From a virus (lineage: Duplodnaviria; Caudoviricetes), in IMG/VR virus record IMGVR_UViG_3300025152_000065, positions 1 to 26,504 of that record: 26,504 nt of DNA, one strand, 5' to 3'. The translations under genes and the position numbers were made by a program. Below the pieces are notes generated by a model, which was given only the letters and a program-made list of their open reading frames with translations, ran no database searches and was not told the origin of the DNA. Position 1 is the first letter of the stretch. Every line of letters begins with the position of its first letter. Positions 1 to 25,102 of this stretch are shown piece by piece.

Positions 1-135
1 ATGAGCAAATGAGCAAATGAGCAAATGAGCAAATGAGCAAATGAGCAAATGAGCAAATGAGCAAATGAGCAAATGAGCAAATGAGCAAATGAGCAAATGA
101 GCAAATGAGCAAATGAGCAAATGAGCAAATGAGCA
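1..135. repeat. Tandem array (ATGAGCAA)n, at least 16.9 copies, truncated by the window start; candidate parS/operator array
   Basis: Perfect 8-bp repeats read directly: 16 full copies at 1-128 plus 7 nt. Confidence 0.97.
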
Positions 136-136
136 G

Positions 137-165
137 TTGACAAAATTAAAGTAACAAAATATCTT
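137..165 (+). promoter_or_regulatory. Sigma70-type promoter of the par/protelomerase operon
   Basis: TTGACA (137-142), 17-bp spacer, TATCTT (160-165), lying exactly between the two repeat arrays. Confidence 0.8.
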
Positions 166-168
166 TTA

Positions 169-290
169 AGCAGAAGAGCAGAAGAGCAGAAGAGCAGAAG
201 AGCAGAAGAGCAGAAGAGCAGAAGAGCAGAAGAGCAGAAGAGCAGAAGAGCAGAAGAGCAGAAGAGCAGAAGAGCAGAAGAGCAGAAGAG
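169..290. repeat. Tandem array (AGCAGAAG)n, 15 copies plus 2 nt; candidate parS/operator array
   Basis: Perfect 8-bp repeats; shares consensus ARAWGAGC with the upstream array. Confidence 0.97.
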
Positions 291-569: not shown

Positions 570-1247
570 ATGGAAAATTTCACGATCACCATCGGCGGCA
601 GAAAGGGCGGGGTAGGGAAGAGCACCACCGCCTGTAACCTGGCGGCGGAACTCTCCAAAAAGGGCTATGAGGTCCTTTTGGTGGACACTGATGAGCAGCA
701 CACCACCCGTGACTGGGCAGACCGCAGAAAAGAAGACCCAAGTTTGCCGCAGATCCAGACGATCCAGCTGACCGGGAAGACGATTGGCAGCGATCTTAGG
801 GGTTTGCAGTCCAAATACCAACTGATCTTGATTGATGCAGGCGGCCGGGCAACCTTGGAGCTGAAAGGAGCGATGTTGGCCAGCGATCTGGCGATCATCC
901 CCATCGTCCCCAGCCAGCCGGATCTGGATACGTTGCAGTACATGGCCGACTTCGTCGAAGACGCAAAATTGACCAACACCGGCCTGATGACCAAGGTCTT
1001 GATCAACATGGCCTCGACCAACCACAACGAGAGGGACACCGCAGGCATCAGGGGCGTGATCACCCAAGATTACACCGAGTTTGAGATGCTTGAATCAGTA
1101 GTCCGGCAGCGGAAAATCTACCGGACTGCCTATGCCCTTGGTCGGACGATCTACGAGATCGAAAACGACTGGAAAGCCAAACAGGAATTTGACCATCTTT
1201 TGGGGGAAGTGGAGAGTCTCATCAAGGAGGTGGTCCATGGAGTCTAA
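570..1247 (+). CDS. parA: ParA/ParF-family (type Ib) partition ATPase
   Basis: Deviant Walker [10 protein letters not shown]' motif VLLVDTDEQ, Walker B ILIDAGG; 225 aa with no N-terminal HTH. Confidence 0.95.
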
Positions 1248-2660: not shown

Positions 2661-2839
2661 TGGGTAAATTGGACCGTATTCGGGAGATCGTTTTTGGTCT
2701 GTGGAGCTTCTTTTTTGTGCTCCTTCCGGGGGGGATTGTCCTGGCTGGGATTATCCTTTTGTTCCTGATTTTGGTGCTCAACCAGATCTTCCCCGGCAGT
2801 GCGGATGCAATCAGCCAATGGATAGCGGAGGAACAGTGA
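2660..2839 (+). CDS. Small membrane protein (about 59 aa)
   Basis: Coupled to both neighbours by overlapping start/stop codons; long hydrophobic stretch IVFGLWSFFFVLLPGGIVLAGIILLFLILVL; alternative GTG start at 2657. Confidence 0.7.
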   Translation: MGKLDRIREIVFGLWSFFFVLLPGGIVLAGIILLFLILVLNQIFPGSADAISQWIAEEQ

Positions 2840-3867
2840 GCCTAAAGGAACTGGTTGAACAACGGATCGGGAACCTGTTGCGGTTTTTGAACAAAAACCC
2901 GCCCGACTTGGAGATCGTCAAGGAAATCTGCCTGGAGGAGGTCAACTTTTTGCGGTGTTGGAAAAAGGAGGACGGGTCTTCGATCAGCCTGAACTACCTG
3001 GTTAGCACCCTGACCACCTACAGAAACGCCATCAAAGAGCAGATGGGCCCCGATTACAAGGCCCTAGAAAACCAATGGCGGGAACTCAAGCGCAACCGTC
3101 GGCAAGCGGTCGAGGCGGTTTACAAAGACAACCCCGACAAACTTTCAAAGGCGCTCAAGGAAATTGACGAGATCCCAGAGATCAAGGCGCTCAAGGAAAA
3201 ATTGGAACCACAGAACGCACACGGGTACGCTTTACGGTACCTAAAGGCTGAACCGGAATTGATCCAGACCTTCAACTCCGAGATCCGCAATCAAATGGTC
3301 AAAAGCCAAGAGCACCAGACCGAGCTTGACGAAGAAAACTTCATGGCGACGACCCTTGAGTTTTTGAAGTCCGAAAGCTTGGTGGAACTGTTTTTGGGCC
3401 TGATGGCCGCAACCGGCAGGCGGAATGCGGAGATCATGGAGACCGGAGAATTTACCTTGACCGAGGACCCAGGGCCCTACCGCTTTGCGGCCCAATACCG
3501 GCTGCTGTTTAAGGGGCAACTGAAGACCAGATCGGTAGAGAAACTGGAAATCTTGATCCCCGTCCTTGCGCCGGTGGAGTTGGTTTTATCGGCGTTTGAC
3601 AAGTTTCGGGATGCCATGGCGCAAAAAAAAGAGGAGGGGAAGGCCACCAGAGAATATATTATGTACCACTGCCTCCCTATGATCCGGATCAAATATGGCC
3701 TGGGGGACGATAAAAAGGTCGAAAAGGTGCGGTCCGTATATGCACACCTGGCCGCCAAAAAATTCAGGCCAAAAACGGTATCGGAAGACGTCTTTATTGC
3801 CGACATTTTGGGCCAGAGGTCCGAGAGCTTTGGTGCCGCTCAATACTACAAAACCGTCACCACCTGA
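2836..3867 (+). CDS. Protelomerase / telomere resolvase (TelN/TelK/TelA/ResT family)
   Basis: Motifs TGRRNAEI, FKGQLKTR, RSVYAHLA, ILGQ...AQYYK; N-terminal LTTYRNAIK; GTG 2836 with RBS GGAGGA overlapping the previous stop. Confidence 0.88.
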   Translation: MSLKELVEQRIGNLLRFLNKNPPDLEIVKEICLEEVNFLRCWKKEDGSSISLNYLVSTLTTYRNAIKEQMGPDYKALENQWRELKRNRRQAVEAVYKDNPDKLSKALKEIDEIPEIKALKEKLEPQNAHGYALRYLKAEPELIQTFNSEIRNQMVKSQEHQTELDEENFMATTLEFLKSESLVELFLGLMAATGRRNAEIMETGEFTLTEDPGPYRFAAQYRLLFKGQLKTRSVEKLEILIPVLAPVELVLSAFDKFRDAMAQKKEEGKATREYIMYHCLPMIRIKYGLGDDKKVEKVRSVYAHLAAKKFRPKTVSEDVFIADILGQRSESFGAAQYYKTVTT

Positions 3868-3950: not shown

Positions 3951-4013
3951 CCGTTTTTAAAAAATTGCCTTATATTAACCGTATGGTATTTTAAGGCAAA
4001 ACTTTTTAAGCGG
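3951..4013. promoter_or_regulatory. AT-rich imperfect inverted repeat; candidate late promoter/operator and/or telomere resolution site
   Basis: TTGCCTTA (3965-3972) and TAAGGCAA (3992-3999), with outer CCG..TTAAAAA / TTTTTAA.CGG arms; contains TTGCCT-16-TATTTT with an extended -10 TG. Confidence 0.5.
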
Positions 4014-4020
4014 AGGTTTG

Positions 4021-4230
4021 ATGAATTCTTCTTTTGTCCTCACCGACAAACGACGGCGCAAGCGAAAAAAATACGGAGACCAGATGTCGGTCTCGGTTGG
4101 CCTGACTCTGGACCAAACGATCCGGTCAGCTTGGTCCGCCATGGGGTACCGGTCCCAAGGGGAACTCCTGCGCAAGCTGGTGGAAATCGGCGCCGAGCAG
4201 ATGCATCTTGGCCACACGGGGGAAGCTTGA
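4021..4230 (+). CDS. Ribbon-helix-helix (CopG/NikR-like) DNA-binding protein
   Basis: RBS GGAGG; beta-strand SVSVGL, then helix, then GYRSQGELLRKLV; basic N-terminal tail KRRRKRKK. Confidence 0.65.
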   Translation: MNSSFVLTDKRRRKRKKYGDQMSVSVGLTLDQTIRSAWSAMGYRSQGELLRKLVEIGAEQMHLGHTGEA

Positions 4231-5594
4231 ACGCTGCTGGACCAGACAAAAAAGGGGTGCTGGAAGCCATCGGCAACCAGGTAGCTCTAAAGGACGGATG
4301 GGTTAACCCCGTGTCCGGCTTTGGGGCTGCTGGCTTTGATCCGATGGCCATCACCTTTTTTTCCTGGTCCGGGACTCTGGACGAACCAACCTTGGAATGG
4401 ATGTTCCGGGGCAGCTGGGTCGCCAGGAAGATTGTCACGGCCCTGCCTGAATGGGCGACCCAAAACGGTTTTGAGCTTGAAGGGGAAAACCCGGCGGAAT
4501 TGGAGCGGATCAAGGCCCAGTTGAAACGGTGGAACGTATTGTCCCTACTCGAAAACCTCGGGACCGAAGCGTCTTTGTACGGTAGGGCGTACCTCATTGC
4601 CTGGGGCAACGACGGTCGGTCGATGGAATACCCTCTGGACGAAAGAAACTTAAGAGGAGAGGTCAAGTTCCGGGTGATCGGCGGGAAATACCGGTGTTAT
4701 CCCAGGCTTTGGGGAGACAACTACTTTGACCCGACCACTCTTTTTGAGCCAAAGCTTTATCAGGTCCTGGACGTTTCCGCCTACGGACAGACGCTCAACT
4801 ACTTTTGCCACCAAAGCCGACTCCGGGGGATGGACGGGAACTACCTGCCCGAACACCTCAAGGCCCAAAATTTCGGCGCCGGAGATCCGGTCTTGCAGTT
4901 AGTCAACAACGAGATCCGCAACCACGGGGTGGCCACCCAGACCTTGGGGAGTCTGCTCCAGGACTTCATCACCAAGAAGCTAAAGATGGGCAACCTCGCC
5001 GAGATGTTGACCATGCCCAACGGAGACGCAGCGGTCAGGGAGCGGCTGCGAAAGCTGTCAGAGCTGCTTTCTATCCACAACATCGCCGCCATCGGTGAAG
5101 AAGAGGAATTTGAAAAAATATCCACTTCCATAACGGGGCTGCCAGAAATGTACGGGGTTGTGCGCAAGGAAATCTCCGGCGCAGCGCATATGCCAGAATC
5201 GGTCATCTACGGTAATTCCGCCTCCGGCGGGGCGATCTCCGCCAGTTCTGGCTACCACGACAAAGGAAACTGGCTCGACCGGGTCGAGGGGTACCAGGAA
5301 AAGCGTTTGGACCCTGTGTTGAGCTGGGTGATCCGGCTGGCCTGTTTGGTCAACAAAGTGGACCCGGAAAGCATCAAGTACCGGTGGAATACCATCCGTG
5401 AGCTGGGGCTAAAGGAAGAGGCGGACATTACGCTGATCCAGTCCCAAGCCCAGAAGGTGGACGCAGAAACCGAAGCGATCCGTGCGGGGAAAATGGCACC
5501 CAAGGAGACCCTCACCCTGGACCGACCCGGTCACACCCTCAACGAATTGAACACGCCGGGCCCGCAAACCTCAAAACTCACGGCGCAGGAATGA
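4227..5594 (+). CDS. Phage portal protein (DUF1073/HI1409 type)
   Basis: DGWVNPVSGFG, SWVARKIV, LYGRAY, HQSRL and ISGAAHMPESVIYG motifs; TTG start overlapping the upstream TGA (start inferred). Confidence 0.88.
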   Translation: MNAAGPDKKGVLEAIGNQVALKDGWVNPVSGFGAAGFDPMAITFFSWSGTLDEPTLEWMFRGSWVARKIVTALPEWATQNGFELEGENPAELERIKAQLKRWNVLSLLENLGTEASLYGRAYLIAWGNDGRSMEYPLDERNLRGEVKFRVIGGKYRCYPRLWGDNYFDPTTLFEPKLYQVLDVSAYGQTLNYFCHQSRLRGMDGNYLPEHLKAQNFGAGDPVLQLVNNEIRNHGVATQTLGSLLQDFITKKLKMGNLAEMLTMPNGDAAVRERLRKLSELLSIHNIAAIGEEEEFEKISTSITGLPEMYGVVRKEISGAAHMPESVIYGNSASGGAISASSGYHDKGNWLDRVEGYQEKRLDPVLSWVIRLACLVNKVDPESIKYRWNTIRELGLKEEADITLIQSQAQKVDAETEAIRAGKMAPKETLTLDRPGHTLNELNTPGPQTSKLTAQE

Positions 5595-7033
5595 ACTTGG
5601 CTCTCGCTCCAAAAAGTCAGGCGAACCCGGTCAACGACCTTTTGGAGTTCACCAAAAGGACGTTCGGCAAGCTGGGCCGGGTTTATGTGCCCAATTGGCA
5701 CCACGAGCTTTTGGCCAAGGAACTCGAAGCCTGGGCCAGGAGGGAGTTCGAGTTTTTGTTTGTGTCGATGCCTGCGGGCTACGGGAAAAGTGAATTGATC
5801 AGCCGAAGTCTTCCTGCTTGGTTGATGGGCCGTGACCCGGCCACGACGATTATGGCCGCCTGCCATACCCAACAAAAGGTGGACAAGTTCAGCGCCGACG
5901 TGAAGCGGAAGATCGGCTCGGACGAGTACCGGTCAATTTTCCCCGGTCTCGAAGTGGATCCGGAGTTCAAAAGGGCGCTTGGGTATTGGCGCAACAATTT
6001 CGGCGGGGCCTTTTATGGTTTTGGCACCGGGGCAGCTTGTTCGGGCGACCATGCCAACTGGATCATCGTTGACGACCCGGTCAAGGGTGACAAACACATC
6101 CAAAACCCGCTGAACCGGGAAAAGGACTGGAGTTGGTTCACCGCAGAGATCACCCAACGGGTGATCCACGCCGAAGGGAGACCCCAGGTGCTCCTGATGC
6201 ACACAAGGTGGAACCACGACGACATCGCCGGAAGGATGATCAAGTTGGTCGAAAGGATCCCCAAAAGCCAAAAGGCAAAATATCGCTTTTTGGTCTTGCC
6301 CGCAGTGCTGGACGACCGGACGGTGCGCACCAAGCACTCAGGCGACCCAAGGGGGGTAGGAGAACCTTTGTGGCCTACGGCCCACAATCTGGACCAACTA
6401 AAGGTCGAAGAACTCAGGAACCGCAGGAACTACCAGGCCCAGTTTTTGTGCAACCCGATCACCCCAAACGCCGGGATGGTAAAGCGAAGTTGGTTTAAAC
6501 CAGTAGCCCAAAACGCTTTGGAGCGTGGCCTTTTGTGGCACCGCTATTTTTGGGTTCCGGCGTTGGAACCTTCGAGCCTCGACCAGCGGGTGGGGATCTG
6601 CGACGCAGCCAAGGACGACCAGGGGCAGGTCTTTTTTAGGATGCCCAGGGCTTTGGATCTGCACTTTGACGAAGCGCTGGAGTTGATGCGCCAGTCGGTC
6701 AAGGAAGGGGGGATCAAAAAGATCGGCGTTTATGAAGGCCGCCAAAAAAGCACCCTCCTAGAAGACCTGCTGCGGTTCCCGTCTTTGGTCTCCAAAGTGC
6801 GCACCATCTCCGGGTCCGACCCACTCAGCCTTGCAGAACCGGGTTTGGCGGGGAAGTTGTTTTTGGTGGAAGACCCGCAAAACGAATCTTTTTTGGAGGA
6901 GTGCGACCAATGGCAAGGTCGTCTCGATTCCGCAGAGGCTATGATCCGAGCGGTCTCTGGTGCGTTTTCTTTGTTCCGTTCCCAGCGCTCTGTGCTTGAA
7001 GTTTGTTTGTCCAAAATAACCACCCCTGCCTGA
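5591..7033 (+). CDS. terL: Terminase large subunit with conserved ATPase and degenerate nuclease domain
   Basis: NWHH, Walker A MPAGYGKSEL, Walker B IIVDDP, coupling motif HTRWNHDD, GEPLWP; C-terminal domain lacks the WD and HDDxVD acidic motifs. Confidence 0.92.
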   Translation: MNLALAPKSQANPVNDLLEFTKRTFGKLGRVYVPNWHHELLAKELEAWARREFEFLFVSMPAGYGKSELISRSLPAWLMGRDPATTIMAACHTQQKVDKFSADVKRKIGSDEYRSIFPGLEVDPEFKRALGYWRNNFGGAFYGFGTGAACSGDHANWIIVDDPVKGDKHIQNPLNREKDWSWFTAEITQRVIHAEGRPQVLLMHTRWNHDDIAGRMIKLVERIPKSQKAKYRFLVLPAVLDDRTVRTKHSGDPRGVGEPLWPTAHNLDQLKVEELRNRRNYQAQFLCNPITPNAGMVKRSWFKPVAQNALERGLLWHRYFWVPALEPSSLDQRVGICDAAKDDQGQVFFRMPRALDLHFDEALELMRQSVKEGGIKKIGVYEGRQKSTLLEDLLRFPSLVSKVRTISGSDPLSLAEPGLAGKLFLVEDPQNESFLEECDQWQGRLDSAEAMIRAVSGAFSLFRSQRSVLEVCLSKITTPA

Positions 7034-7040
7034 GAGGACC

Positions 7041-8330
7041 ATGAGCAGCCAGTTCGTTTTGAAACACCAATCCGTCCCCCCCAGCCTGAGAATCCCGGTG
7101 CACAGCAATTTTTCCGGCAGCCCCCAGGCGAGGTTGACCAACTACGACAACCAACCCCACCCGACCCTTGAAAGGGACGGCGATGGGCAGTGGTTCCTTT
7201 TGTTTGCTCCCCAACTGATGGGCAGGCCGGTCGAGGTTTGTGTGTTTGAGGATGCCCCCCTCTTGCCGGTACTGCCCAGGCTGGAAAACAAGATGATCCC
7301 CAACCAATTGAGCAGTTCCAAAATGGTGGGTTGGTTGTCTGGCCTGGGTTGGGTGGGTAAACTCTCCTGCCTCTTTTTGGCGGCCATCGCCGTTGGTTTT
7401 TACCTGGAAAAAAACGGGTCAGAGTTGCTTCCTGCCTTTTGGGCTGGGTTTCCATTTGGGCTTAAGGTTTTGGTGGCGGCGCTCTTGGGCATCGGGGTGG
7501 CCAAGGGTGGGGCCTTGACCGCTTGGTGGTCCCGCTTGAGTGGGGCGAAGCAGACCGCTTTGACTTCGGCCTTGTTGTTCGGGGGGCTGGTGCTCTCCCA
7601 CCTGACCGGGTCTGATGCGTTGCCGGTGCTTTACAGCGAGGTAAACGTGGGCCAAGCGGCAGCCAAAACGGCCAATGCCCTCAAAAACCCAAGGCAAATC
7701 CTCGCCGAAGGTGGGGAAGCCTTGGAAGAGGCCTCCAAGGTGGCCGTCAACGAACAGAAGTTTTTGGACCATCCGTTTTTTAAGGACCTGGACCCCTCCA
7801 TCCGTGAGGACCTGGGGGAACATTACATCTACACCGGTGCGGGGGTGATCGTTCGCTCCGAACCCTACGAACCTGCGGAACTCTCAGAAGCGGAGGCCGT
7901 CTGTAATCAGATCCCCGGCGGCAGATTGGGGACCCCCGCCGAACTGGAGCAACTCAGCGGCAGCCCCCTGGTTGGCCTTCGCTACAACCAGGCGGAGAAG
8001 GGCGAATGGACTGCCGAGCGGTATTGGTTCGGCCCTGGGGCAGACCACAAACTTTACCACCACAAACACCCGGAGACTCGGTTTTTTATGGTCACCGAAA
8101 AGGCGGACAGCCTAAGCGGCGAGGACCTCCAGACTTTCGTCAAAGCACGGGGATACGAAACCGGGACGTTAAACGACCAGCAGATCCAGCGCACCTTGTA
8201 CCAAGCAGAAAAGCGAAAAGCCCTGGAACAACTACCAGTCGGTACTGATTTGTCCGGCAAGTTCGCTTGGCTGGATGGGGGGAAAAAGGCCGCTTACCGC
8301 TGCATCCTGGGACAGCCGGAGGGGATGTGA
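7041..8330 (+). CDS. Membrane protein (about 3 TM segments) with a C-terminal C-type-lectin-like domain
   Basis: RBS GAGG; three hydrophobic segments; EAEAVCNQIPGGRLGTPAELEQL...EWT...YRCI signature. Confidence 0.65.
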   Translation: MSSQFVLKHQSVPPSLRIPVHSNFSGSPQARLTNYDNQPHPTLERDGDGQWFLLFAPQLMGRPVEVCVFEDAPLLPVLPRLENKMIPNQLSSSKMVGWLSGLGWVGKLSCLFLAAIAVGFYLEKNGSELLPAFWAGFPFGLKVLVAALLGIGVAKGGALTAWWSRLSGAKQTALTSALLFGGLVLSHLTGSDALPVLYSEVNVGQAAAKTANALKNPRQILAEGGEALEEASKVAVNEQKFLDHPFFKDLDPSIREDLGEHYIYTGAGVIVRSEPYEPAELSEAEAVCNQIPGGRLGTPAELEQLSGSPLVGLRYNQAEKGEWTAERYWFGPGADHKLYHHKHPETRFFMVTEKADSLSGEDLQTFVKARGYETGTLNDQQIQRTLYQAEKRKALEQLPVGTDLSGKFAWLDGGKKAAYRCILGQPEGM

Positions 8331-9355
8331 ACCTAAAGCTCAAGGAGTTCTTGCGGCGCATGACCACCCAACCTACCGACCCCCAAAGGATCCTGGTGTG
8401 GATGGGGCTCAATTGGTGTCTGCTTCACCTGACCTTGATCCCAGGACCGGAGCCCTCTCCGCTTCGTGGCGGGGCCCCGATCTGGATGGATACGCTTGTG
8501 GTGGCTTCAATGGCCTTGAGCATCTGCTTGTGGATCTTCTTTAGCGGGGAAAACAATTTATCCCTGGCCATGCGTATGGCCTATACCGGAGCCACAACGC
8601 AGGTCAGCTACATGATCCTGTTTGAGGGCTGGTCCTCCAACTCCGTTCTTTATCAGGCCTTCAGTCTGCTTTCGATCAACATCCTCGCCGGGTTCGCCCT
8701 GACCGGGATCACCCCGGTTCGGCTGTTTGAAGTAACGGCCCCGGAGTTCCAAGGGCTGAGTGCGGCCCAAAGGGGCTGGGCGAACATCAAGGCAGCATTC
8801 CTGGCCCCAGAACTCAGGATCACCCAGGCTTCGGCAATTCGGGGGATCATCTACTGGTATGCGATGCTTTTGGTGGTGCTGTTGTTGGTGCTGTGGCCGA
8901 CTCGTGGGCAATCCATGGGCCTGAACGACGTGGTCCAGGGCTGGGTGCTGTGGTCCAACTGGAGGATCGTTCTTTCAGGCGCCCTGTTGGGGGTTTGCGG
9001 GGTTGGTTGGATCAAGCTCAGGTCTGAAAACATCCCCCAAGAACTGGCCCAATCGGTGGGCCTGTTGCTGCGGGTTTTGGTGGCGCTCTCGGTGTTTTTG
9101 ATCCTGGGCCAGTATTGGCCGCAATCCCTGACTAGGCCGGAACTTGGGGCAGCGGTGATCATTCTTTTGGTTTTCCCCCAGGCCTTTGGGGATCTCGAAG
9201 ATTTTTTGACCAGAAACTTTGGGCTTCTTGCAGCCCGGTCCTTTCGGGCTTTGCCTTTTGTTTTGTTGTTTTTGATCGGGATCAACGTTTGGATCCCGGT
9301 CAACGAGCTGGCCTCGATCTCGGCCGCTTGGGTAAAAGCCCAGAGTTGGAGGTAG
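8327..9355 (+). CDS. Polytopic membrane protein (roughly 9-10 TM segments), function unknown
   Basis: GTGA overlap with the previous stop; hydrophobic helices throughout. Confidence 0.75.
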   Translation: MNLKLKEFLRRMTTQPTDPQRILVWMGLNWCLLHLTLIPGPEPSPLRGGAPIWMDTLVVASMALSICLWIFFSGENNLSLAMRMAYTGATTQVSYMILFEGWSSNSVLYQAFSLLSINILAGFALTGITPVRLFEVTAPEFQGLSAAQRGWANIKAAFLAPELRITQASAIRGIIYWYAMLLVVLLLVLWPTRGQSMGLNDVVQGWVLWSNWRIVLSGALLGVCGVGWIKLRSENIPQELAQSVGLLLRVLVALSVFLILGQYWPQSLTRPELGAAVIILLVFPQAFGDLEDFLTRNFGLLAARSFRALPFVLLFLIGINVWIPVNELASISAAWVKAQSWR

Positions 9356-9356
9356 C

Positions 9357-10571
9357 GTGAACGTTCAACTGCTGGATTATGTTGATCTTGGAAAGCAGGT
9401 CCTCAAAAAAGACCCGGTCAGCGGGTTTTTGCGGATCCCCGTTGCCCTAACCTGTGTGCAGGTACGTGATTACCCGGAGATCAGCAGACCAGACGGAAGG
9501 ATGGGGACCAAGATCGCCTTCCCGAACCAGACGATCCAAGATGCCGCTCCAACCTTTAACGACGTCCCGGTGGTCGTCCACCACGGGGTAGATTGGGTAA
9601 CTACCGGGAATTTCAGGGACAGGGCCGTGGGGCACGTTTCCTCCGGAGTTAGGTTCGACGAAAAAACCAAGCACCTCCGGGGGGAGGTGATCATCTCCGA
9701 TGAAAAAACGATCAAGGAAGTCTTAGGCAGGAAACAATACCGGGAGGTCAGCATCGGGGCCCCTGGGGCGATTGAGTTCCAGGCTTGTTATCTGTTGCAA
9801 GACGGGACCCTGAGCTTCGACCCAAACTCCGGTGGAGAACCGGCAGACGCCTGGTGCTCCGGTATGACGGGGAACCACCTGGCCTTGGTTCCCCAAGGAA
9901 GAGCTGGGGCCAGCTGTCGTCTTTTGATTGACCATGACACCCCGCCAAAAGGCGGCGAACCTAAACCTAATCAAGGAGCAAACGTGAAAATCAAGATCAC
10001 CCTGCCCATTTACTTGGCAGACGGGAAGCCCGTAGTTGAGCAAAGGGAGGTGGAGTTTGAAGACACCGTCGAGCCTCTCGTTGCCGTGTTCAGGGACCGA
10101 GAGGCAAGGATCAAGGCGCAAATTGACCTTACGGACACCTCTAGGCGGACCGCCGAGGAAAGGGCCAAACAAGCCGAAGCCAAGCTGAAAGATGCCGAAG
10201 ACAAGGCCAAGGAACTGGTTCCAAAAAAGGAAGTAGCGGCAATGGTCCAGGATCATTTGGTGGCAATGGGCGCAGCTCAAAACCTGAGGATCGAGATCAA
10301 AGACGGCCAAGGGGCGATGGAAATCAAGCTGGCGGTGATCGAACAGCTTTTGCCTTCGGTTCGCCAGCACTTAAAGGACAGCAAGCACGACCAAGAAGCA
10401 ACCCACGTTGACATTGCCTTCAAGGCGTCCACGGCCAACTTGAGGGATGCGGCGGAGATGGCTCTGATCAACAAGGCCATGAAGGGCGGGATGCAGCAAC
10501 AGACCGGCTTTAATGACGCTCCTGTGGCCAAAACTCCCCGGCAGATCCACGAAGAACGTTACAACCCTTAA
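9357..10571 (+). CDS. DUF2213-family prohead protease / scaffold
   Basis: GFLRIP, VPVVVHH, EVSIG, GNHLALVPQGRAG motifs, then a coiled-coil scaffold tail. Confidence 0.88.
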   Translation: MNVQLLDYVDLGKQVLKKDPVSGFLRIPVALTCVQVRDYPEISRPDGRMGTKIAFPNQTIQDAAPTFNDVPVVVHHGVDWVTTGNFRDRAVGHVSSGVRFDEKTKHLRGEVIISDEKTIKEVLGRKQYREVSIGAPGAIEFQACYLLQDGTLSFDPNSGGEPADAWCSGMTGNHLALVPQGRAGASCRLLIDHDTPPKGGEPKPNQGANVKIKITLPIYLADGKPVVEQREVEFEDTVEPLVAVFRDREARIKAQIDLTDTSRRTAEERAKQAEAKLKDAEDKAKELVPKKEVAAMVQDHLVAMGAAQNLRIEIKDGQGAMEIKLAVIEQLLPSVRQHLKDSKHDQEATHVDIAFKASTANLRDAAEMALINKAMKGGMQQQTGFNDAPVAKTPRQIHEERYNP

Positions 10572-10586
10572 CCTACCAGAGGAACG

Positions 10587-11093
10587 ATGCAAACAAGTTA
10601 CGCCAACCCTTCCACCGGCTACGCCGGGCAATTGTTGAACCAGGGCGAAGTCCCGGACCTTGAGGCCTTGTCGGTCGAGGGAGCGGAGATCGCCTTTGGG
10701 ACCGGCGTTATCAGCGGGACCAACAAAGAGACCCAAATCAAAACGCCCGCTGCGGTCTTTACCCTGGCCCAGTTCCGGGGTGTGGTCATTGCCACCGCAG
10801 CGAGGATCGAGCGGCTTTACAAACAAGTTGGCCTGCCCAAGGTCCCGGTTGGGGAGGCCATCGACGTGCTGCGGCAGGGTTATGCCAAGGTGTTGACCAA
10901 AGCGTCTCCGATCAGCAGGGGCGACGCAGTTTATCTGCAACACACCGCAGGCGGGGTTTATGCCCCCGGCGACCTGCACAACGATGCCGCTCAAGCGGCC
11001 AACGCCGTGGACGTTTCCGCAGTTGCCGCTTGGTACCGTGGGGTATCTGTTGCGGGCGAATATGCCACCATCCAACTTTCGATCAAGGGGTAA
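10587..11093 (+). CDS. Capsid decoration / cement protein
   Basis: Position between protease and capsid; MQTSY...GYAGQL, IAFGTGV, DVLRQG motifs. Confidence 0.75.
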   Translation: MQTSYANPSTGYAGQLLNQGEVPDLEALSVEGAEIAFGTGVISGTNKETQIKTPAAVFTLAQFRGVVIATAARIERLYKQVGLPKVPVGEAIDVLRQGYAKVLTKASPISRGDAVYLQHTAGGVYAPGDLHNDAAQAANAVDVSAVAAWYRGVSVAGEYATIQLSIKG

Positions 11094-11096
11094 ACA

Positions 11097-12254
11097 ATGC
11101 AATTTCTTAAACCGCATCCGGAACAAACCTTGATGGACAGCACCGTTTCCATGCTGCTCAAGACTCCTGGAGTCGTTGGGCAGATGCCGATCCTGCAAGA
11201 GCCCCAGGCCCAAAAGAACCTGCGGGACGCCCTCAACAAGGCGGAACTGCTGGCCTACAACCTCACTGCCACAAGCAGCCAACAATCCAAGGTCTTGATC
11301 GGGTCCGCCGGAGCCCATCAGGTCATCATGGATGGGAAAATGGTTCCCCTTAAGGACGGTCCGGGTGACTACTCCGCAAGGTCGTTGGAGCGATTCGATC
11401 CCAAAATGCGGGAGGCAAAGTTAAAAAAGCTCAACTTTGCCGACATCCTCCCGGTCAATAACTTGGCCGACCCTGCCGTGACGGCGGAAACCTACGAGAT
11501 GAGTTTCCCGATCATCGAAGCCAAGGAGCAGTACTCGGAACACGGCCAAAAGTCCAACCAGATTGATGTGATCGTGAAGGAATTTACCTCTACCGTAAAA
11601 CGGGAAGACGTCGAGTTCGTCCTGACCTACGACGACATCCAAGCCATGGCCCGCACGGGGAGAATCAACCAGGTCGAACGCAAGATCCGGGTGGCCTATC
11701 GGGCTTACCAGGAAAAAGCCCAAGCCCGTTTTATGCTGGGGGATGCAACCCAAGGGGTGAAGGGCTTCACCAACCACGCCTACATGCCGGGGGCAGCAAT
11801 TTCGCAAGGCGGGAAAACCACCATCGCCTCCATGCTGCCAGAAGAGCAGATTAAGTTTTTTAACAGCCTGATCACCCAGGTCTATATGGCCACGGGGATG
11901 AACCATTCCCCCAATGCTTTGTGCTTGGCACCCAACATTTGGTCCACACTTTTTAACCAGATCGTCGATTTCCAATACCGAAGAGTTTTAGAATATCTGC
12001 TCGACCAGCTGGGGGGCATGGGGTACCGGGAAATTCACCCCTGCTTTGAACTCCAGGCAACTGGGGTCAACGCCAAAGACCAAGTGATTGCCTACGAAAA
12101 AAGTATCGAAAACATGGAGGCAACCATCCTCCAAGACCTGACCTGGATTCCCCAGCAGCCTGTAGGTTCCTCGATCAAGTTCACCGGGACCTTCAAACTG
12201 GGCGAATACAAGTCCTTTTTCCCACTCTCGGCCCTCCGGGCATACGAGCAATAA
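11097..12254 (+). CDS. Major capsid protein (DUF2184, HK97 fold)
   Basis: GD...GVKGFTNH, PNALCLAP, IAYEKSIENME motifs; size and synteny. Confidence 0.85.
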   Translation: MQFLKPHPEQTLMDSTVSMLLKTPGVVGQMPILQEPQAQKNLRDALNKAELLAYNLTATSSQQSKVLIGSAGAHQVIMDGKMVPLKDGPGDYSARSLERFDPKMREAKLKKLNFADILPVNNLADPAVTAETYEMSFPIIEAKEQYSEHGQKSNQIDVIVKEFTSTVKREDVEFVLTYDDIQAMARTGRINQVERKIRVAYRAYQEKAQARFMLGDATQGVKGFTNHAYMPGAAISQGGKTTIASMLPEEQIKFFNSLITQVYMATGMNHSPNALCLAPNIWSTLFNQIVDFQYRRVLEYLLDQLGGMGYREIHPCFELQATGVNAKDQVIAYEKSIENMEATILQDLTWIPQQPVGSSIKFTGTFKLGEYKSFFPLSALRAYEQ

Positions 12255-12802: not shown

Positions 12803-13471
12803 ATGGGATTGTTGATCACCTGGGAAGACGTGCTGCTCATCGCAGCGGGGGAAAAGGACCTGGCCAACGAGGACAAGTTCACCTTGGACTTGCTGGCCAG
12901 GGTTACCGTCACCGATGTTGGGAGCACGTCCTACAACCTAACCTTGTTGGGTCAGGTGATCAGCTTCCAGCGGCAAGTCGAGGATAGTCTCGCAGCTGTG
13001 GCGGCGGGACTGATCCAAGGCATAAACGAATGTAGGCCCTTGGTTGATCAGGCCAAGGCCAAGCCGGGCCGGTACCCGGACGAGTTCTCCATTTATGGGA
13101 AAATCAGTTTGAATTGGTTTGAAGTGAGCCCCGGAACTGGGACGACGGTGGCCCAGTCCCTGGCAAAAGCGATTGTGTATGGGGGAAGAAGCTTCATCCT
13201 CAAGCTCTGCGAAAAGAAGGTACAGGCCTCGGTTTTTGGGGATTTCACCTACGAAGCACAACTGTATTATGCGGCCCACCTGGCAGCACAAACCAGGACC
13301 CCGGCCCAAGGCAAAGGGAGCCTTTCGGGCCAAAGCTTTGGTGGAGAATCAATGACTTTTACCATGCCCAACCTCAACCCAAAGGCGGGAGAGGTCTTAA
13401 AACAAACCACCTACGGGCAGGCATTCCTCGAACTTTCAAGGGGCTTGGTGTTCCCGATGGTGGTCGGGTGA
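12803..13471 (+). CDS. Head-tail adaptor (DUF4054-like) with an internal inserted domain
   Basis: FGDFTYEAQLYYAAHL, SGQSFGGESMTF, TTYGQAFLEL motifs. Confidence 0.8.
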   Translation: MGLLITWEDVLLIAAGEKDLANEDKFTLDLLARVTVTDVGSTSYNLTLLGQVISFQRQVEDSLAAVAAGLIQGINECRPLVDQAKAKPGRYPDEFSIYGKISLNWFEVSPGTGTTVAQSLAKAIVYGGRSFILKLCEKKVQASVFGDFTYEAQLYYAAHLAAQTRTPAQGKGSLSGQSFGGESMTFTMPNLNPKAGEVLKQTTYGQAFLELSRGLVFPMVVG

Positions 13472-13854
13472 GCGGTCTGGTGATTGAGGTCCTGATCGAG
13501 GAGGACTCCAAAAATTTTGACCAAATGGAAACCCGGTGTTTTGCGGAGGTGCCGTTTGTCGAGATCGGCCTCCTGGAGGAAAGCCCCAGAGCACAATTCA
13601 AGCGGGGGGAAGACCAGATGATCCGCCAAGAGACGGCGGCCTTGCTCCTTCGTGGGCTTGAGTCCAGTCACATCACGGTAACGACGGACCAGGTGGCAGA
13701 GTCGTTGTTGTTGTACTTGATGGAAAACCAAGCCCCGGAACAGGAGCTCAAGATCGTAGGGCAGTTGCTTGGGGAGGTCATGGCCGGACAAACCAACCCC
13801 GCCGCCACCAAGGGAGAACTGAAAAAAGCGATCATTGCCCAGGTAAGAAAGTGA
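13468..13854 (+). CDS. Putative neck/tail-completion protein, divergent
   Basis: Synteny; weak VEIGL...GELKKAIIAQV resemblance to HK97 gp10-like proteins. Confidence 0.5.
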   Translation: MSGLVIEVLIEEDSKNFDQMETRCFAEVPFVEIGLLEESPRAQFKRGEDQMIRQETAALLLRGLESSHITVTTDQVAESLLLYLMENQAPEQELKIVGQLLGEVMAGQTNPAATKGELKKAIIAQVRK

Positions 13855-14201
13855 CCCCAGATCCGCAGTTCTTGGATACGATTTTGGATAACGCCGTGCC
13901 GGTCGAATTGGTTTCTGCGGGGACGGTTGAGGTCATCCAGGGCCGGGCGACCGGGAGCGAGCAGGTCTTGCCCCTGGTCGCTTGGCCTCAGCAATCAAGC
14001 CCAGAGGAGATTAAATTTGCAAGGCAAGACGGGGACCGAATTGGCGAATGGCTGACGTTTCGTGGTGCCTTTGACCCGTTGGTCAAGTCTGGGGCTTCCT
14101 TACGGTACCGGGGCCGGGATTATCAGATCAGAAAACTTTGGCGGGTACCGGTTGCGGAACCCGTATTTTACATAGCTGTAGGCTATTGGAGCGAGGCTTA
14201 G
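13851..14201 (+). CDS. Putative head-closure protein
   Basis: Synteny; beta-rich with DGDRIGEWLTF and LRYRGRDYQI. Confidence 0.6.
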   Translation: MTPDPQFLDTILDNAVPVELVSAGTVEVIQGRATGSEQVLPLVAWPQQSSPEEIKFARQDGDRIGEWLTFRGAFDPLVKSGASLRYRGRDYQIRKLWRVPVAEPVFYIAVGYWSEA

Positions 14202-14819
14202 GTGGACGGATTGCAAAACAACTTCGGCCAGCAGATCAATTCGCTGGTTTTTTGGATCACCGAACTGACCGGGTTGGCCCCAAATAGGGTCCTGGACGGG
14301 CGTTCGGTTGGTGCGGATCGCCCCAAAAACGAGGCTTACACCTTGTTCTACGTGGTCCACAACGATGATGCCGGCCAAATCGGGGTCAAAAGGATCAGCA
14401 ACGGGGATGGAACCGTGGCGGTCTGGAGGTATCGGCCCAAACAGTTGGGGATCGACCTGCACTTTTACAGCCCTGACCACAAGCCGGTCAGCCACAGCGA
14501 CCAGCCGCAAGACGCCGGGTACTACGCCAGGAGGTTCTCCGCTGGTGTAAAAACCGAAAAAGGAAAGACGGCCTTGGCCGAATCAGAACCTTTGTCCGGG
14601 CGCTGCGGTGGGTTGGCCCTGCAAGATTTGGCCGGGCCGATCAACCAGGATTTTAGGGAGGAGCAGTCCTCCGGTTGGGTCAGGCACCAATATCTGGATC
14701 TGACCTTGAGTTACACCGAGGTAACCTTGGAAACCCTGCCGGAAATCAACGAAGTCAGAATGACCGGAACCGGGGCCGGGGCGGCCCCAAATACGACCAT
14801 CGCAGTTAACGCCAACTAA
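14202..14819 (+). CDS. Putative neck/tail terminator protein
   Basis: Directly upstream of the sheath; RPK..YTLF, IDLHFYS, LDLTLSY motifs. Confidence 0.65.
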   Translation: MDGLQNNFGQQINSLVFWITELTGLAPNRVLDGRSVGADRPKNEAYTLFYVVHNDDAGQIGVKRISNGDGTVAVWRYRPKQLGIDLHFYSPDHKPVSHSDQPQDAGYYARRFSAGVKTEKGKTALAESEPLSGRCGGLALQDLAGPINQDFREEQSSGWVRHQYLDLTLSYTEVTLETLPEINEVRMTGTGAGAAPNTTIAVNAN

Positions 14820-14827
14820 GAGGACCA

Positions 14828-16463
14828 ATGAACAGCTCCAAATTCGTCAAAGCCCAAACCAGCACGACCCCTTCGGCACTTGCCGGAGATGACTTGAGCA
14901 TCATTCTGTTTCTTAGTGATGTCTCGACCGCCAGCAACTGGGACGGGAAAACGGTCAAAAGTTATTCCAACCCAGATGAAATCGCCTTGGACTTCCCCGA
15001 AAACCACTGGGCCAGGACGGTAGCGGCAAAGGTCTTTGGACAAGTGCCTTCGGTTTCAACCTTGAAGATCGGCAGGCGTAACCTCGCCCAAACCATGACC
15101 GGGGCGCTGGACGCAGCCGAAGCAGCGGACTCGAAGTGGTTTTTGCTGGTCGGCGCCAGGGGGGAGGATATTTTTGAGGCTGGAGATTGGATCGAGGCCA
15201 GGGTCCTCAAGTTCGGTATTTATGCCTCGGAAGACCCGTTTAGCTTGGATGCGCAAGTGACCACCAGCATCAAGGCCCGGTTTGCTTTGAAGGGTTACAA
15301 AAAATCATGCCTGCTTTGGCATCACCAGTCCGGTACCAAGTTGACCGGGGTCAAAATCACGGTTGCGGCTGGCGTTGCCACCGCCACCGCCGCCAGTGTG
15401 GCGCAAGTGGCCAAAGTTGCGGTGGACACGGTCCTGGACTCCACCAACTACACTCTGACCTTCAACGGGCAAGCGGTCACCTCCAACTCCGGGGTGGGGG
15501 CAACGTTCACCACCATCCGGGATGGGCTGATCAACGTGTTTAACCAGCTTCCTGGGGCCATCGGTCTGGCGGAAGTTGGCGTTGGGGCCAACGAGTTGAA
15601 GATCACGGCCATCGATCGGCACTCCCTTTACCTTGGCGGCCGTCGCCAACATGACCGTCACCGAGACTACCGCCAACCAAACCGCAGAGCACCTTCGCAG
15701 GGTGGGGGATCAAGTGGTGATCGAAGGCAGCAGCGCTGCCTTTAACGGCTTGCGGACGGTCAAGGAGGTGATCCTCCAGAGCAACGGCAAGTCCGACCAA
15801 TTCACTTTTGACGCTCCCCTGGCGGTGGCCAACGATGTAAGCGGGAACGCTTCGATTGACGGCGGATTTACCTACCCGGACGCTGCGGCCGCCGGGATGG
15901 GCTTGGCCTTCCCGATGGGCAAGATCGACTGGGCCTTCAAGTCGCTAGGAGGCATCGAGCCGAGCCCCGAGACGTTGATCACAGAATCGGTCTCGCAGGC
16001 GCTGGAGCTGGCCAACTGCAACTACTACACTGCCGTAGGCGGCAGGAACATCCTCTTTGAGGCGGTCACCGGGTTTGGGATCCCCATCGACCAGATGATC
16101 GGCCTGGGCCTTTGGCTGCCCAATTTGATCAAGGGCGACGTGTACGCTCACATCACCGGCCAAAAACGCTTTACCTTGGACGACTCCGGGCTTTTGGCGG
16201 TCAAGGTGCTGGTGGAGCAATGTCTGGCCAGAGCCCAGGCGGCAGGACTGACCGCTCCCTTTGTCGAGGACTTTGCCCTTTACCCGGACACCGGGCTTCC
16301 GGCTGGGGCCCAATTGGGGGACCACTACGTCGTCAAGGTGCCGCAGCTCAAAGATGTCCCCAAGATTGAGCGGGAGGCAGGCAAAGTCCTTTCGGGGATT
16401 GAGTACCAGATCCAAGGAGCCAAGGGCTTCCATTTCGTCAACATTTTCGGAAACTTCACTTAA
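14828..16463 (+). CDS. Contractile tail sheath (DUF3383), split by a +1 frameshift near 15600-15630 (ORFs 14828-15745 and about 15615-16463)
   Basis: N-terminal VKSYSN..EIALDF, VFGQVPSVSTLKIGRR; C-terminal WAFKSLGGI, NCNYYT, IDQMIG..WL, IEYQIQGAKGFHFVNIFG. Confidence 0.85.
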
Positions 16464-16472
16464 AAAGGAAAC

Positions 16473-16922
16473 ATGCCAAACGAACCTGAATTGCTGGCGA
16501 CCGACTCTTTTCCGCACATCATCGTGACGATCACCAGGGTAAAAAACGGCAAATCGGAAACCTTGAGCGGGCTCAACGGGATTGAAGTCGCTCGGGCTGC
16601 CGGGAAGTACGAAAAAGACGTAAAAATCAGCGAAGACGGCAAAGTGGGGGTCCGCACGGTCAACGCCAACAGCCGGTCGGGGACGGTAAACCTGGTGCTG
16701 GCCCATCACAGCCCCAGCATCGCTTTTTTGAGCGAGTTGGACGCAGCTGACCCCAAGGACGACCTGGTTGCGATCGACATCACCGACACCATGAACAAAA
16801 AAAGCTGGAAGGCCGGTGTGGCATGGCTGTGTGAGTTTGCTACGGCGAACTTGAAAAAAACCAAGGAAGACCGAACCTTTGCGTTTGCCTCGACATTTCT
16901 GAAGATGGACGCCCAAGGGTAA
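16473..16922 (+). CDS. Tail tube protein (DUF3277-like), paralog 1
   Basis: DGKVGVRTVNANSRSGTVNLVLAHHSPSIAFLSEL motif; follows the sheath. Confidence 0.75.
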   Translation: MPNEPELLATDSFPHIIVTITRVKNGKSETLSGLNGIEVARAAGKYEKDVKISEDGKVGVRTVNANSRSGTVNLVLAHHSPSIAFLSELDAADPKDDLVAIDITDTMNKKSWKAGVAWLCEFATANLKKTKEDRTFAFASTFLKMDAQG

Positions 16923-16927
16923 ACAAC

Positions 16928-17362
16928 GTGGACAAGCCGGAACTCATCACCATCGGGGGGGACCAACTCCAAGTCAATTTTGGAGGTAAGCCCCTCAAAG
17001 GGTACGCCCAAAAAGGCGTAGTCATCGAGCCAGCAGCCCCCAGGTTTGGAACCAAAAGGGCCCTGGGCGGGCAGGTGATCCCGGTGATGAGCAGGGACAA
17101 CAGGGCCAAAGCCACGTTGACCCTGCTTCGAGGTTCCGAAAGCAACTCCCTCTTGGACATGTTAGCCAAGGCCGACCAGTTTACCGGCAAGGCGGCCTTG
17201 CCGTTTATCGCCCACGACAAGGTCAGCGGAGGGTTTTATTTTTCCCTCCAGTCCAGGATCACCAAGGTCCCAGGGTTCCAAAGCGGGGAGTCGGAGTTGG
17301 TCTGGGAGTTCGAGTTGTATTATTTGATCAGCAAAGTTGGTTATATTCCAACCCTAATTTGA
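16928..17362 (+). CDS. Tail tube-like protein (DUF3277-like), paralog 2
   Basis: VNFGGKPLKGYA, SRDNRAKATLTLLRGSESNSLL, LVWEFE motifs. Confidence 0.75.
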   Translation: MDKPELITIGGDQLQVNFGGKPLKGYAQKGVVIEPAAPRFGTKRALGGQVIPVMSRDNRAKATLTLLRGSESNSLLDMLAKADQFTGKAALPFIAHDKVSGGFYFSLQSRITKVPGFQSGESELVWEFELYYLISKVGYIPTLI

Positions 17363-17368
17363 GGCACC

Positions 17369-17965
17369 GTGAAGGGTAAATTTGTTTTATTGTTGCTTGC
17401 CTTTGTTTTGGCAGGTGTGGCCCCGGCGTGGGCCGAATGTTGGTTTTTTTGTGGTGCGGCGGAAGCAGCAAAAGAAAGTCTGGCCGAGAGCTGCGATGCA
17501 TTGTCCGACCCGGAGACCAAGCCTTTGGACTACTCCTTGGACGGAAGTCTGATTCTTTCCCCGGCCCAAAGGGCAAAAAGGGGCACCAATCTTTTTGAGG
17601 CCTTTGGGGCCGGTGTCAGTTACGGATTAAGCCCTGATTGGAGGCTCTTCGGCAGGTACGGGCAAAGCCGAACGACGGTCTTAGAAGGCCAAGTGGAGAC
17701 CCAGGCCCGGACGCTGACCGTCTTGGGTGGGGGCAGTTTTTTGACCAAGCTGCAAGGGGGTAGTTTGCTTGAGCTGTCTGTGGGCACCGGGTGGGCCGGT
17801 GCGGACGGAGAAACCGTCTTTGGCCCTCCTTTGTACCTGCGGGCGCAGTGGTTCCCCTTGCCCACCCTTGGGGTGTATTATTCGATTCTTGACCTCCGGG
17901 CGGCAGATTCCAGGCAACTGGGCTTTGGCCAACTGGGGGTCAGCTTTTCTCTTAACCTCAACTAA
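17369..17965 (+). CDS. Exported outer-membrane beta-barrel protein (Lom/Ail/OmpA-barrel-like)
   Basis: Signal peptide ending AWA; amphipathic beta-strands GAGVSYGLSPDWRLFGRY...QLGVSFSL. Confidence 0.7.
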   Translation: MKGKFVLLLLAFVLAGVAPAWAECWFFCGAAEAAKESLAESCDALSDPETKPLDYSLDGSLILSPAQRAKRGTNLFEAFGAGVSYGLSPDWRLFGRYGQSRTTVLEGQVETQARTLTVLGGGSFLTKLQGGSLLELSVGTGWAGADGETVFGPPLYLRAQWFPLPTLGVYYSILDLRAADSRQLGFGQLGVSFSLNLN

Positions 17966-17975
17966 AAAGGCCTCT

Positions 17976-18719
17976 GTGATCACTCAAAAGACCCTTTCCA
18001 TCGGGGAAAACCAGTACAAAATCCAAAGCCTCCCGGCAATTGCGGCCTTGGCGTACAAGGCAAAATTGCTGAAACAGTTGGCCCTGATCGGCAACGACGT
18101 GACCAGCGCCGGGGATCTGCGTGATTATTTTGTCAACAAGGTTGGCGGGGAGGCGTTGGGGGAGGAAATTTTTAAGCAGCTCGGATCCAGCCCGCTGGCC
18201 AAAAAACTGGAGCCCTTGCGGGGCAAAACCTTTTCCGGGGCCCAGGAACTCATCACGGCGGTGACCGTACAGATGGGCCGTGAATTAAACGAAAAGGAAA
18301 CCGCCCAACTTTCGGAAGCGCTGGGAAAAGCGAAGTTCGGAAAGGACCGGGTCTCGGACGTACTTTTTGGCAACCCAGAACAGATGTTTGGAGTTGTGAC
18401 CAAGCTGTCGAAGCGGCTGGACGACCTGGAAGTCCAAGAGATATTCTGGGGGGTTTTGGGTAGGTCTTTGATTTATGCCTGCGAGCTGGGGGCAGACGGT
18501 GCGGAAAAAAACAAGGCCAGCTTCCAAGCCAAGGACGACAAGGCCCTGGACCAATGGTTTTCAAAAAAACTTGATGAAGCGGTAATTCTTTTTTGTGAGT
18601 GCCTGGTCTTCAACTATTCCAGTTTTCTCGAAGGCCTCAAAAAAAAAGGGAACTGGAAAGAGATTGTCCAGCGGATGGGGATCAAGCTGGAATCAGGAAC
18701 CCCAGATCAGAACGACTAG
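17976..18719 (+). CDS. Tail assembly chaperone (gpG-like)
   Basis: GTG 17976; KTLSIGENQYKIQSLPAIAAL and LVFNYSSFL motifs; upstream of the tape measure. Confidence 0.75.
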   Translation: MITQKTLSIGENQYKIQSLPAIAALAYKAKLLKQLALIGNDVTSAGDLRDYFVNKVGGEALGEEIFKQLGSSPLAKKLEPLRGKTFSGAQELITAVTVQMGRELNEKETAQLSEALGKAKFGKDRVSDVLFGNPEQMFGVVTKLSKRLDDLEVQEIFWGVLGRSLIYACELGADGAEKNKASFQAKDDKALDQWFSKKLDEAVILFCECLVFNYSSFLEGLKKKGNWKEIVQRMGIKLESGTPDQND

Positions 18720-18904
18720 AGCGCCTGCTCAACGAGTCGTGGGACGAGGAACTTTCGGTGCTGCGGTTGGTTGTCACCGAAGGTTCAAACGTTACCCTAG
18801 CAGACCTGGAGACCCGGCTGACGCTTGAAGACGTGTTCAAATTGCAATTGTACCTGGAATTCCAAAAAACGCCGTTTTACAGCCTAAAAACCGACCAAAG
18901 GTGA
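18638..18904 (+). CDS. -1 frameshift extension of the tail chaperone (gpGT-like)
   Basis: A9 run at 18639-18647 (A AAA AAA); the -1 frame is open and encodes TLADLETRLTLEDVFKL; no own start evident. Confidence 0.7.
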   Translation, partial: QKKRELERDCPADGDQAGIRNPRSERLERLLNESWDEELSVLRLVVTEGSNVTLADLETRLTLEDVFKLQLYLEFQKTPFYSLKTDQR

Positions 18905-18908
18905 CCCA

Positions 18909-20795: not shown

Positions 20796-21343
20796 TGTTT
20801 GGACTCCTCGCTTTTGAGCCCAGTTTTCAGGCGGAACTGCCGTTTCGGCGGCTGGCCGTGGACGGCATGGTCCGGGAGTCCCACAAATACAGCTCCAAAA
20901 TCGCCCAACACCCGGTCGAGGAGGGTAGCCCCGTTACCAGCAACATCCGTTTGTTGGCGCCGGTCTTGGAGATCGAAGGGATCTGGACCGACACCCCGGT
21001 CCAGTTCGTCAACGCCCTTTTTGGGACCCTGAACAGCTCCGAGGGCCGGTCTGTCGAAAAGGTGTTGGATCTGATTGATTTGAGGAACAAAAAGAAGCTT
21101 TTCGACATCGTCACCAGCCTGGGGGTGTACAAGAACTATTTCTTCCAAGAGCTTACGTTTCCAAGAGAGGTGGAGGACGAATATTCGAGCCGCTTCACCG
21201 CCACGTTGGTCAAGATCAACTACGTCAAGGCCGCCTTCGGGGTCAGGACCATGATTGGTTTTGGGGTAGAGGATACATTGGGGCCGATCAAAGAAGTGGG
21301 GGCTGTAACCCCGCAGTCGGTCCCACTCAAACTTTGGGGTTAA
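20795..21343 (+). CDS. Baseplate/tube initiator (Dit-like) protein
   Basis: ESHKYSSKIAQHPVEEGSPVTSNI and FDIVTSLGVYKN motifs. Confidence 0.8.
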   Translation: MFGLLAFEPSFQAELPFRRLAVDGMVRESHKYSSKIAQHPVEEGSPVTSNIRLLAPVLEIEGIWTDTPVQFVNALFGTLNSSEGRSVEKVLDLIDLRNKKKLFDIVTSLGVYKNYFFQELTFPREVEDEYSSRFTATLVKINYVKAAFGVRTMIGFGVEDTLGPIKEVGAVTPQSVPLKLWG

Positions 21344-23199: not shown

Positions 23200-23201
23200 A
23201 C

Positions 23202-25093: not shown

Positions 25094-25102
25094 GAGGAAG
25101 CG

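Follow-up and report, generated by a model that had tools for sequence, protein, structure and literature searches.

The large terminase TerL encoded in the window (the whole stretch of DNA analysed here, 26,504 nucleotides of IMG/VR record IMGVR_UViG_3300025152_000065, Duplodnaviria; Caudoviricetes) lacks the catalytic acids of its nuclease domain, and it is carried by an element of 47.7 kb, likely a linear phage-plasmid, which also encodes a telomere resolvase. The novelty is the pairing of a nuclease-dead TerL with a telomere resolvase; in the CC-licensed PMC and bioRxiv literature, searched by title or start of abstract, no nuclease-dead terminase was found in a telomere phage. To the reading that the resolvase makes unit-length genomes and that TerL only pumps them, converging on phi29, we give slightly better than an even chance.

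TerL and its nuclease site

The features of the terminase gene are as follows.

5591..7033, + strand: large terminase TerL, 480 aa (phrog_38, E 4e-52; predicted model, pLDDT 87.1, resembling TerL structures)
5768..6211, + strand: intact TerL ATPase motifs (Walker A K66, Walker B D161/D162, R190, motif III T205-R206-W207)
6470..7033, + strand: catalytically stripped TerL nuclease domain (acids replaced by W321, Y381, A450 and R453)

The reading frame is open across 5591-7033, with residues ~15-292 making up the ATPase and residues ~294-466 the RNase H-like domain. Because an identical protein is present on 16 contigs, the sequence is no assembly error. In the ATPase, K66, D161, D162 and R190 are invariant in a 41-row alignment and T205-W207 are conserved at 90% or more; the Walker A string of the query is unusual, occurring once in the aligned set, and the Thr of motif III is replaced by Lys in the relative P0048.

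The initial annotation had claimed that the catalytic acids are gone from the C-terminal domain. All four are indeed absent, the positions being occupied by W321 (codon 6551-6553), Y381 (6731-6733), A450 (6938-6940) and, at i+3, R453 (6947-6949). The motifs that it quoted are present as RYFWVPA at residue 318, IGVY at 378, DPLSLA at 410 and AEAMIRAVSGAF at 448, and the DK..RA motif is lost in the query and in both of its nearest relatives. The beta-1 Asp position is W321 in ungapped register with the nearest relatives, at the end of the predicted strand 316-321, and V322 in the alternative register of the large alignment; residues 312-325 contain no acidic residue in either register.

In G20c TerL, D294, D347 and D429 are reported to be indispensable, the charge of D300 not to be essential, and D428 to be a second-shell residue (PMC5389553). 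No metal-binding acids equivalent to D294, D347 and D429 occur in the query, which still has the auxiliary D331 and the second-shell E449, with roles assigned by analogy to G20c. Mapped by motif position and predicted secondary structure, the kept acids would be the equivalents of D300 and D428, and the lost ones those of the three essential residues of G20c. In P74-26 the D294A change is reported to have nearly abolished cutting and not DNA binding (10.1101/080440). The query TerL is probably without nuclease activity.

The profiles Terminase_6C and TIGR01630 gave no match for any of the three dead proteins (the query, P0048 and P0049), whereas active neighbouring TerLs pass the same profiles (5/5 in Pfam, 3/3 in NCBIfam). 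In structure prediction, the AlphaFold model arranges strands and helices in the sequence expected for terminase nucleases, its pLDDT of 87.1 being that of a model built on an alignment of mostly active homologues, on which its fold leans; folded as a single sequence, the C-terminal domain reached a pLDDT of 36.6, too low to be informative. The T4 gp17 ATPase matches the predicted model with Z 19.9 and rmsd 3.0 Å, and the G20c nuclease matches the predicted domain with Z 13.5 and rmsd 3.4 Å over 155 residues; the nuclease domains of Sf6, P22 and RB49 match as well. An Atlas model of the protein reached TM 0.74-0.79 to TerL clusters, and a canonical TerL nuclease-domain HMM matched the C-terminal domain with E 8.6e-9. 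A full-size RNase H-like fold is thus predicted to be retained.

The frequency of the loss was judged from 195 retrieved proteins, of which 168 with lengths of 400-620 aa were aligned; leaving out the query, the two proteins closest to it and a row with a gap in the nuclease region gave 164 for comparison. The beta-1 Asp was present in 164/164, the i+3 Asp of the last helix in 163/164, and an acid at the beta-4 column in 148/164. None of the four acids was missing in 142 proteins, one in 14 and two in 8 (the last group partly reflecting alignment slips), and none of the 164 lacked three or four.

Relatives lacking the same acids and the age of the loss

The best two matches to TerL among 1.84 billion representatives were P0048 (232 bits, 32% identity) and P0049 (221 bits, 30%), followed by a match of 181 bits. 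At the four acid positions they have R/K/C/Q and R/Q/A/Q, respectively. The query, P0048 and P0049 form a clade with an SH-aLRT of 99 in a full-length tree of 34 rows, where the nearest rows by path are active TerLs, and of 89 in an ATPase-only tree of 25 rows. A FastTree ATPase tree of 56 rows placed one further row inside the group (support 0.71). The nearest active TerLs by tree are P0052, P0075 and P0094. The grouping of the three is likely rather than certain, as the query is a long branch. Identity between P0048 and P0049 is 47% in the C-terminal domain and 41% in the ATPase; between these two and the query it is 26-28% and 31-32%.

Since two homologues of ~30% identity have lost the same acids and group with the query, the loss is old and conserved, and is not decay. 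The proposal that catalysis was lost selectively with the fold kept is supported by this shared loss, by the clade and by a C-terminal domain conserved about as well as the ATPase. Pseudogenisation was rejected in view of the open frame, the 16 identical copies, the conserved relatives and the whole sheath gene in two assemblies.

The net charge of the C-terminal domain is +8 and +16 in P0048 and P0049, -1 in the query, and -2.5 on average in the 164 others. Such basic domains are as expected if those of the two relatives were retuned for DNA binding. The same charges, with Arg or Lys at catalytic positions of the relatives, could be taken to mean that basic residues replace a metal in a rebuilt site that still cuts, as could acids outside the canonical positions, namely D331, D446 and E449, which are kept in all three proteins, and E382. 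We hold such a site to be very unlikely: D331 and E449 correspond to the dispensable D300 and the second-shell D428 of G20c, none of the three indispensable acids remains, E382 is replaced by N and K in the relatives, and the beta-1 Asp is Trp or Arg. The initial annotation had named the acids of LDQR, CDAA and RLDS as those that might form a competent site. They were rejected as substitutes: D331 of LDQR is the auxiliary D300-type residue, reported to be dispensable in G20c (PMC5389553), D338 of CDAA is K and L in the relatives, and D446 of RLDS belongs to the loop that immediately precedes the last helix.

SeAvs3 is reported to recognise terminase active-site residues and to bind the nuclease domain (PMC13601566), so the acids might have been lost mainly to escape Avs3-type sensors, with cutting moved elsewhere in consequence. 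This explanation is silent on what cuts the DNA, and EcAvs2 is reported in the same source to be triggered by the ATPase domain, which the query keeps; we give it very little weight.

No further member of the dead group was found by a motif screen and by full comparison of the 11 best other domain matches. Scans with alignments of the three proteins or with P0049 gave, among the matches listed, only this element and canonical TerLs. The contigs of P0048 and P0049 (5.0 and 8.8 kb) were not recovered among the matches listed in the viral, metagenome and genome scans, so the link between a dead TerL and a resolvase rests on one element. No resolvase homologue was present in the loci retrieved with the TerL scans, scans with the portal protein and the resolvase gave no close relative, and neither did the phage and plasmid collections.

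Telomeres, resolvase and gene content

The window is part of the 47,680-bp record G001, at an offset of 14,432. Its other features are listed below.

1..290, + strand: 8-bp direct repeats in two arrays, flanked by the primase-helicase gene and parA (from the sequence)
570..1247, + strand: ParA partition ATPase (phrog_164, E 9.5e-44)
2836..3867, + strand: telomere resolvase of the ResT/TelK/TelA family (PF16684, E 9.7e-31, passing the cut-off)
3965..3999, + strand: inverted repeat with an 11-base exact match between its left arm and the telomere arm (spacers of 19 bp here and 26 bp in the telomere)
4018..4230, + strand: ribbon-helix-helix-like ORF of 70 aa that immediately precedes the portal gene, where no TerS is recognisable (a lead only)
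4227..5594, + strand: portal protein (PF06381, E 3.5e-56; Pam3 portal 8hds, E 1e-19)
7041..9355, + strand: two hydrophobic, membrane-like ORFs that separate TerL from the protease within the head operon (unmatched in Pfam, PHROGs and NCBIfam)
9357..12254, + strand: head protease (DUF2213), cement protein and major capsid protein
12803..26504, + strand: neck and contractile-tail module (myovirus)

G001 terminates in a perfect palindrome of 82 bp; no other in the record is as long, the next arm length being 11. The left-end contig of run X1 opens with the centre and 25-bp arm of this palindrome before running into the first bases of G001, and the left contig of run X2 carries 21 extra bases likewise. 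The two ends have in common a 50-bp telomere core, with a 25-bp arm at each, and the unit measures 47,655 bp from centre to centre. Run X3 shows an 835-bp fold-back at the right end. Depth at the ends and in the interior was 5.4 against 17.5-18.9 in X1, 3.2 against 9-12 in X4, and 3.0 against 16 in X5, values that the AT-richness of the ends (GC 25-37%) also lowers. The end evidence consists of contigs, several of them possibly from source samples, and contigs alone do not prove hairpins, as a fold-back and a joined circle look alike in a short-word assembly graph. Another assembly, of 47,786 bp, amounts to one unit with 99 bp added (79 extra on the left, 36 past the centre on the right, 32 from a difference in repeat number). 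Its excess may be a circular overlap and the assembly a joined form; 99 is a word length often used in assembly.

Aligned to TelA (4dwp), the resolvase has counterparts of R255, K286, R366 and the nucleophile Y405, while H394 is replaced by Gln; the residue list is that of PMC3558466 and PMC11317167. Identity to TelN of N15 is only ~30%, over half its length. The packaging model proposed below takes the enzyme to be active. Its gene adjoins the head operon, at distances of 17 kb and 29 kb from the telomeres. A complex prediction of TerL with the resolvase scored 0.00, which is evidence neither way.

To the left of the window, G001 encodes an SNF2 helicase, a PD-(D/E)XK-like ORF, an adenine methylase, an anti-repressor and a primase-helicase of 1182 aa, a replication protein of the DnaG-DUF927 type. 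The cumulative GC-skew minimum is at 14,025 of G001, ~0.4 kb upstream of the repeat arrays, which are a candidate centromere or origin. ParB/SopB was not recognised in the element. Between the par region and the resolvase, a 324-aa ORF (1686-2660) of no known family contains three similar short helical segments; a DNA-binding or partition protein is possible. The inverted repeat at 3965-3999 is the longest interior match of the telomere arm in G001, and 0/300 shuffles gave such a pair, in a test whose pattern was chosen after seeing it. For the 70-aa ORF no Pfam or PHROG match was obtained; the nearest named Atlas cluster is RHH_1 (26% of members, score 0.92), and the structure matches fell short of the threshold for a name. 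A single protein may bind the telomeres as well as the late operon, a candidate link to late-gene control. A promoter scan of 2600-9500 gave no sigma-70 site.

TerL is encoded with the portal protein in the head operon; the likely TTG start of the portal gene overlaps the stop of the 70-aa ORF, and the TerL ATG in turn overlaps the portal stop. Between portal and protease, no gene for a minor head protein was recognised. In the tail module, a two-base difference at 15618 splits the sheath gene (14828-16463) in the window's assembly only, while two other assemblies (G001 and the 47,786-bp assembly) carry the whole 545-aa gene; the frameshift is likely an assembly error. The tandem genes at 16473-17362 both match phrog_280, which we take to represent tail-tube genes, and are perhaps duplicated. 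A signal-peptide-like ORF of the tail operon (17369-17965) has a weak match to the outer-membrane beta-barrel family TIGR04565 (E 0.046), which hints at a Gram-negative host. After the tail fibre, L007 encodes at 10015-11874 a 619-aa Ser/Thr-rich, lipoprotein-like cargo protein with no significant family match. In L005, inverted repeat pairs at 7490-7532/9164-9206 (43 bp, 93%) and 8064-8088/9135-9159 (25 bp, 100%) lie around the anti-repressor and repressor-like region.

When G001 was searched in six frames with profiles of canonical TerL domains, only the one TerL gene was found. A weak match at 8625-8825 of G001 was rejected as a second TerL, since it lies in a shifted frame over another ORF and is absent from the six-frame domain search. 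No TerS was recognised among hand-picked ORFs of at least 60 aa in the packaging region; the only TerS match in the element is a weak HTH (E 7e-4) beside the primase. TerS genes diverge fast. Among the hand-picked ORFs of at least 60 aa in the 47.7-kb element no holin or endolysin was recognised, and the scanned ORFs of the 47.7-kb record contain no DNA polymerase.

These gaps (TerS, lysis, and the minor-head gene between portal and protease), together with the sheath frameshift in the window, could point to a satellite-like or defective phage-plasmid whose TerL cannot finish packaging, so that a helper terminase is used or no infectious particles are made; in a variant, heads, tails or the dead TerL are kept for another use. 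This is distinctly unlikely. Two other assemblies are without the frameshift, the module from head to fibre is otherwise whole, the ATPase motifs are intact, and, unlike recent decay, the loss is common to proteins diverged by ~70% with conserved C-terminal domains.

A separate nuclease might instead cut concatemers in trans, with the resolvase only maintaining the plasmid state, as in N15. The candidate is the PD-(D/E)XK-like ORF (2083-2604 of G001, minus strand), whose homologues in Arthrobacter phages are annotated as Cas4-family nucleases, and cutting in trans would accord with the reported block of the T4 motor by hairpin loops (PMC10893049). However, this ORF lies ~16 kb from the head operon, beside the SNF2 helicase and near the methylase, and the same set of methylase, nuclease and SNF2 helicase occurs in Ruegeria phage 45A6, whose TerL retains all acids, so its presence does not depend on a dead TerL. 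Neither Pfam and PHROGs nor a rough motif scan revealed an HNH gene. We consider cutting in trans unlikely.

DNA packaging and genome ends

Under the favoured reading, the resolvase would resolve replicated telomere junctions into unit-length molecules of 47.7 kb, replacing the cutting step, and TerL would pump one unit molecule per head, end to end, with no cut at start or finish. The dead nuclease domain would be kept for docking to the portal and for holding DNA, as proposed for phi29 gp16. The end entering the portal would be either a sealed hairpin or a resolvase-opened end with a short overhang, and the element would produce virions. This reading is drawn from the loss of the acids in the three related proteins only (0/164 others), the terminase-like fold and a resolvase with 4/5 of the active-site residues; from the shared telomere ends, the sole TerL, the lack of a recognised TerS in the packaging region and the precedent of phi29; and from the place of the resolvase gene, far from the telomeres and beside the head operon, unlike in N15. 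The genome context in this way suggests a reason for the loss of the acids from TerL.

The T4 motor is reported not to package hairpin-loop substrates and to accept overhangs of up to ~12 bases (PMC10893049). This is the chief obstacle to the preferred reading, as a sealed hairpin may need opening, and the packaged end is for that reason perhaps resolvase-opened rather than sealed. That the His-to-Gln change of the resolvase bears on end opening is speculation. Also counted against pumping without cutting are the Gln at H394 itself, the PD-(D/E)XK gene, the lack of a recognised lysis gene and the long branch of the query. Some dsDNA phages are reported to work without a small terminase (PMC7617512).

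In phi29, gp16 has a vestigial RNase H domain, the nuclease reportedly having been lost since unit-length DNA is packaged (PMC7672431, PMC13595956). The protein described here is likewise an ATPase motor with a C-terminal RNase H-like domain that lacks the catalytic acids. phi29 differs in relying on a terminal protein, pRNA and protein-primed replication, and only four strands and two helices are left of its domain. The domain described here descends from active Terminase_6-type TerLs, has a predicted full size and belongs to a myovirus that encodes a primase-helicase and a telomere resolvase. With active Terminase_6/TIGR01630 TerLs, including the distant ones of known structure from G20c, Sf6, P22 and T4, the protein shares two domains, the ATPase motifs and a predicted nuclease fold, but it has lost the four acids and the DK..RA motif.

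The replicon resembles the telomere phages N15, phiKO2, NAR688, phiHAP-1 and HMP1 in its palindromic tel site and in its genes for a protelomerase, a Par ATPase, a primase-helicase and an anti-repressor, and its length of 47.7 kb falls within the reported 35-52 kb (PMC9170930, PMC12042878, PMC4669245). In contrast, the virion DNA of N15 is reported to have cos ends cut by terminase (PMC9170930, PMC4669245), whereas the sole TerL here is without acids, and NAR688 is reported to carry TerS and TerL (PMC12042878), whereas TerS is unrecognised here. The tel site is described as adjoining the protelomerase gene in N15 (164 bp) and HMP1, unlike the 17 and 29 kb found here, where only a partial arm-like repeat lies beside the resolvase gene. 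The element is phi29-like in its working without being a phi29-like phage, and it is a telomere-phage-like replicon without the cos/terminase and tel-adjacency features of N15.

The full proposal, that virion ends are made by the telomere resolvase, with a pump-only TerL and no TerS, in an old lineage including P0048 and P0049, falls a little short of an even chance. If true, resolvase-made ends would be a strategy distinct from cos, pac/headful, direct terminal repeats and terminal protein, and an undescribed way of defining the genome ends of a tailed phage. A full-size TerL minus cutting would then be an independent route to cutter-less packaging, and it would offer a natural test of the non-cutting roles of the nuclease domain and of how packaging starts and stops without a cut or TerS. 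It would ask whether a portal motor accepts a hairpin end, and the linear DNA of the virions would be closed or protein-capped, a state that standard methods of mapping ends would misread.
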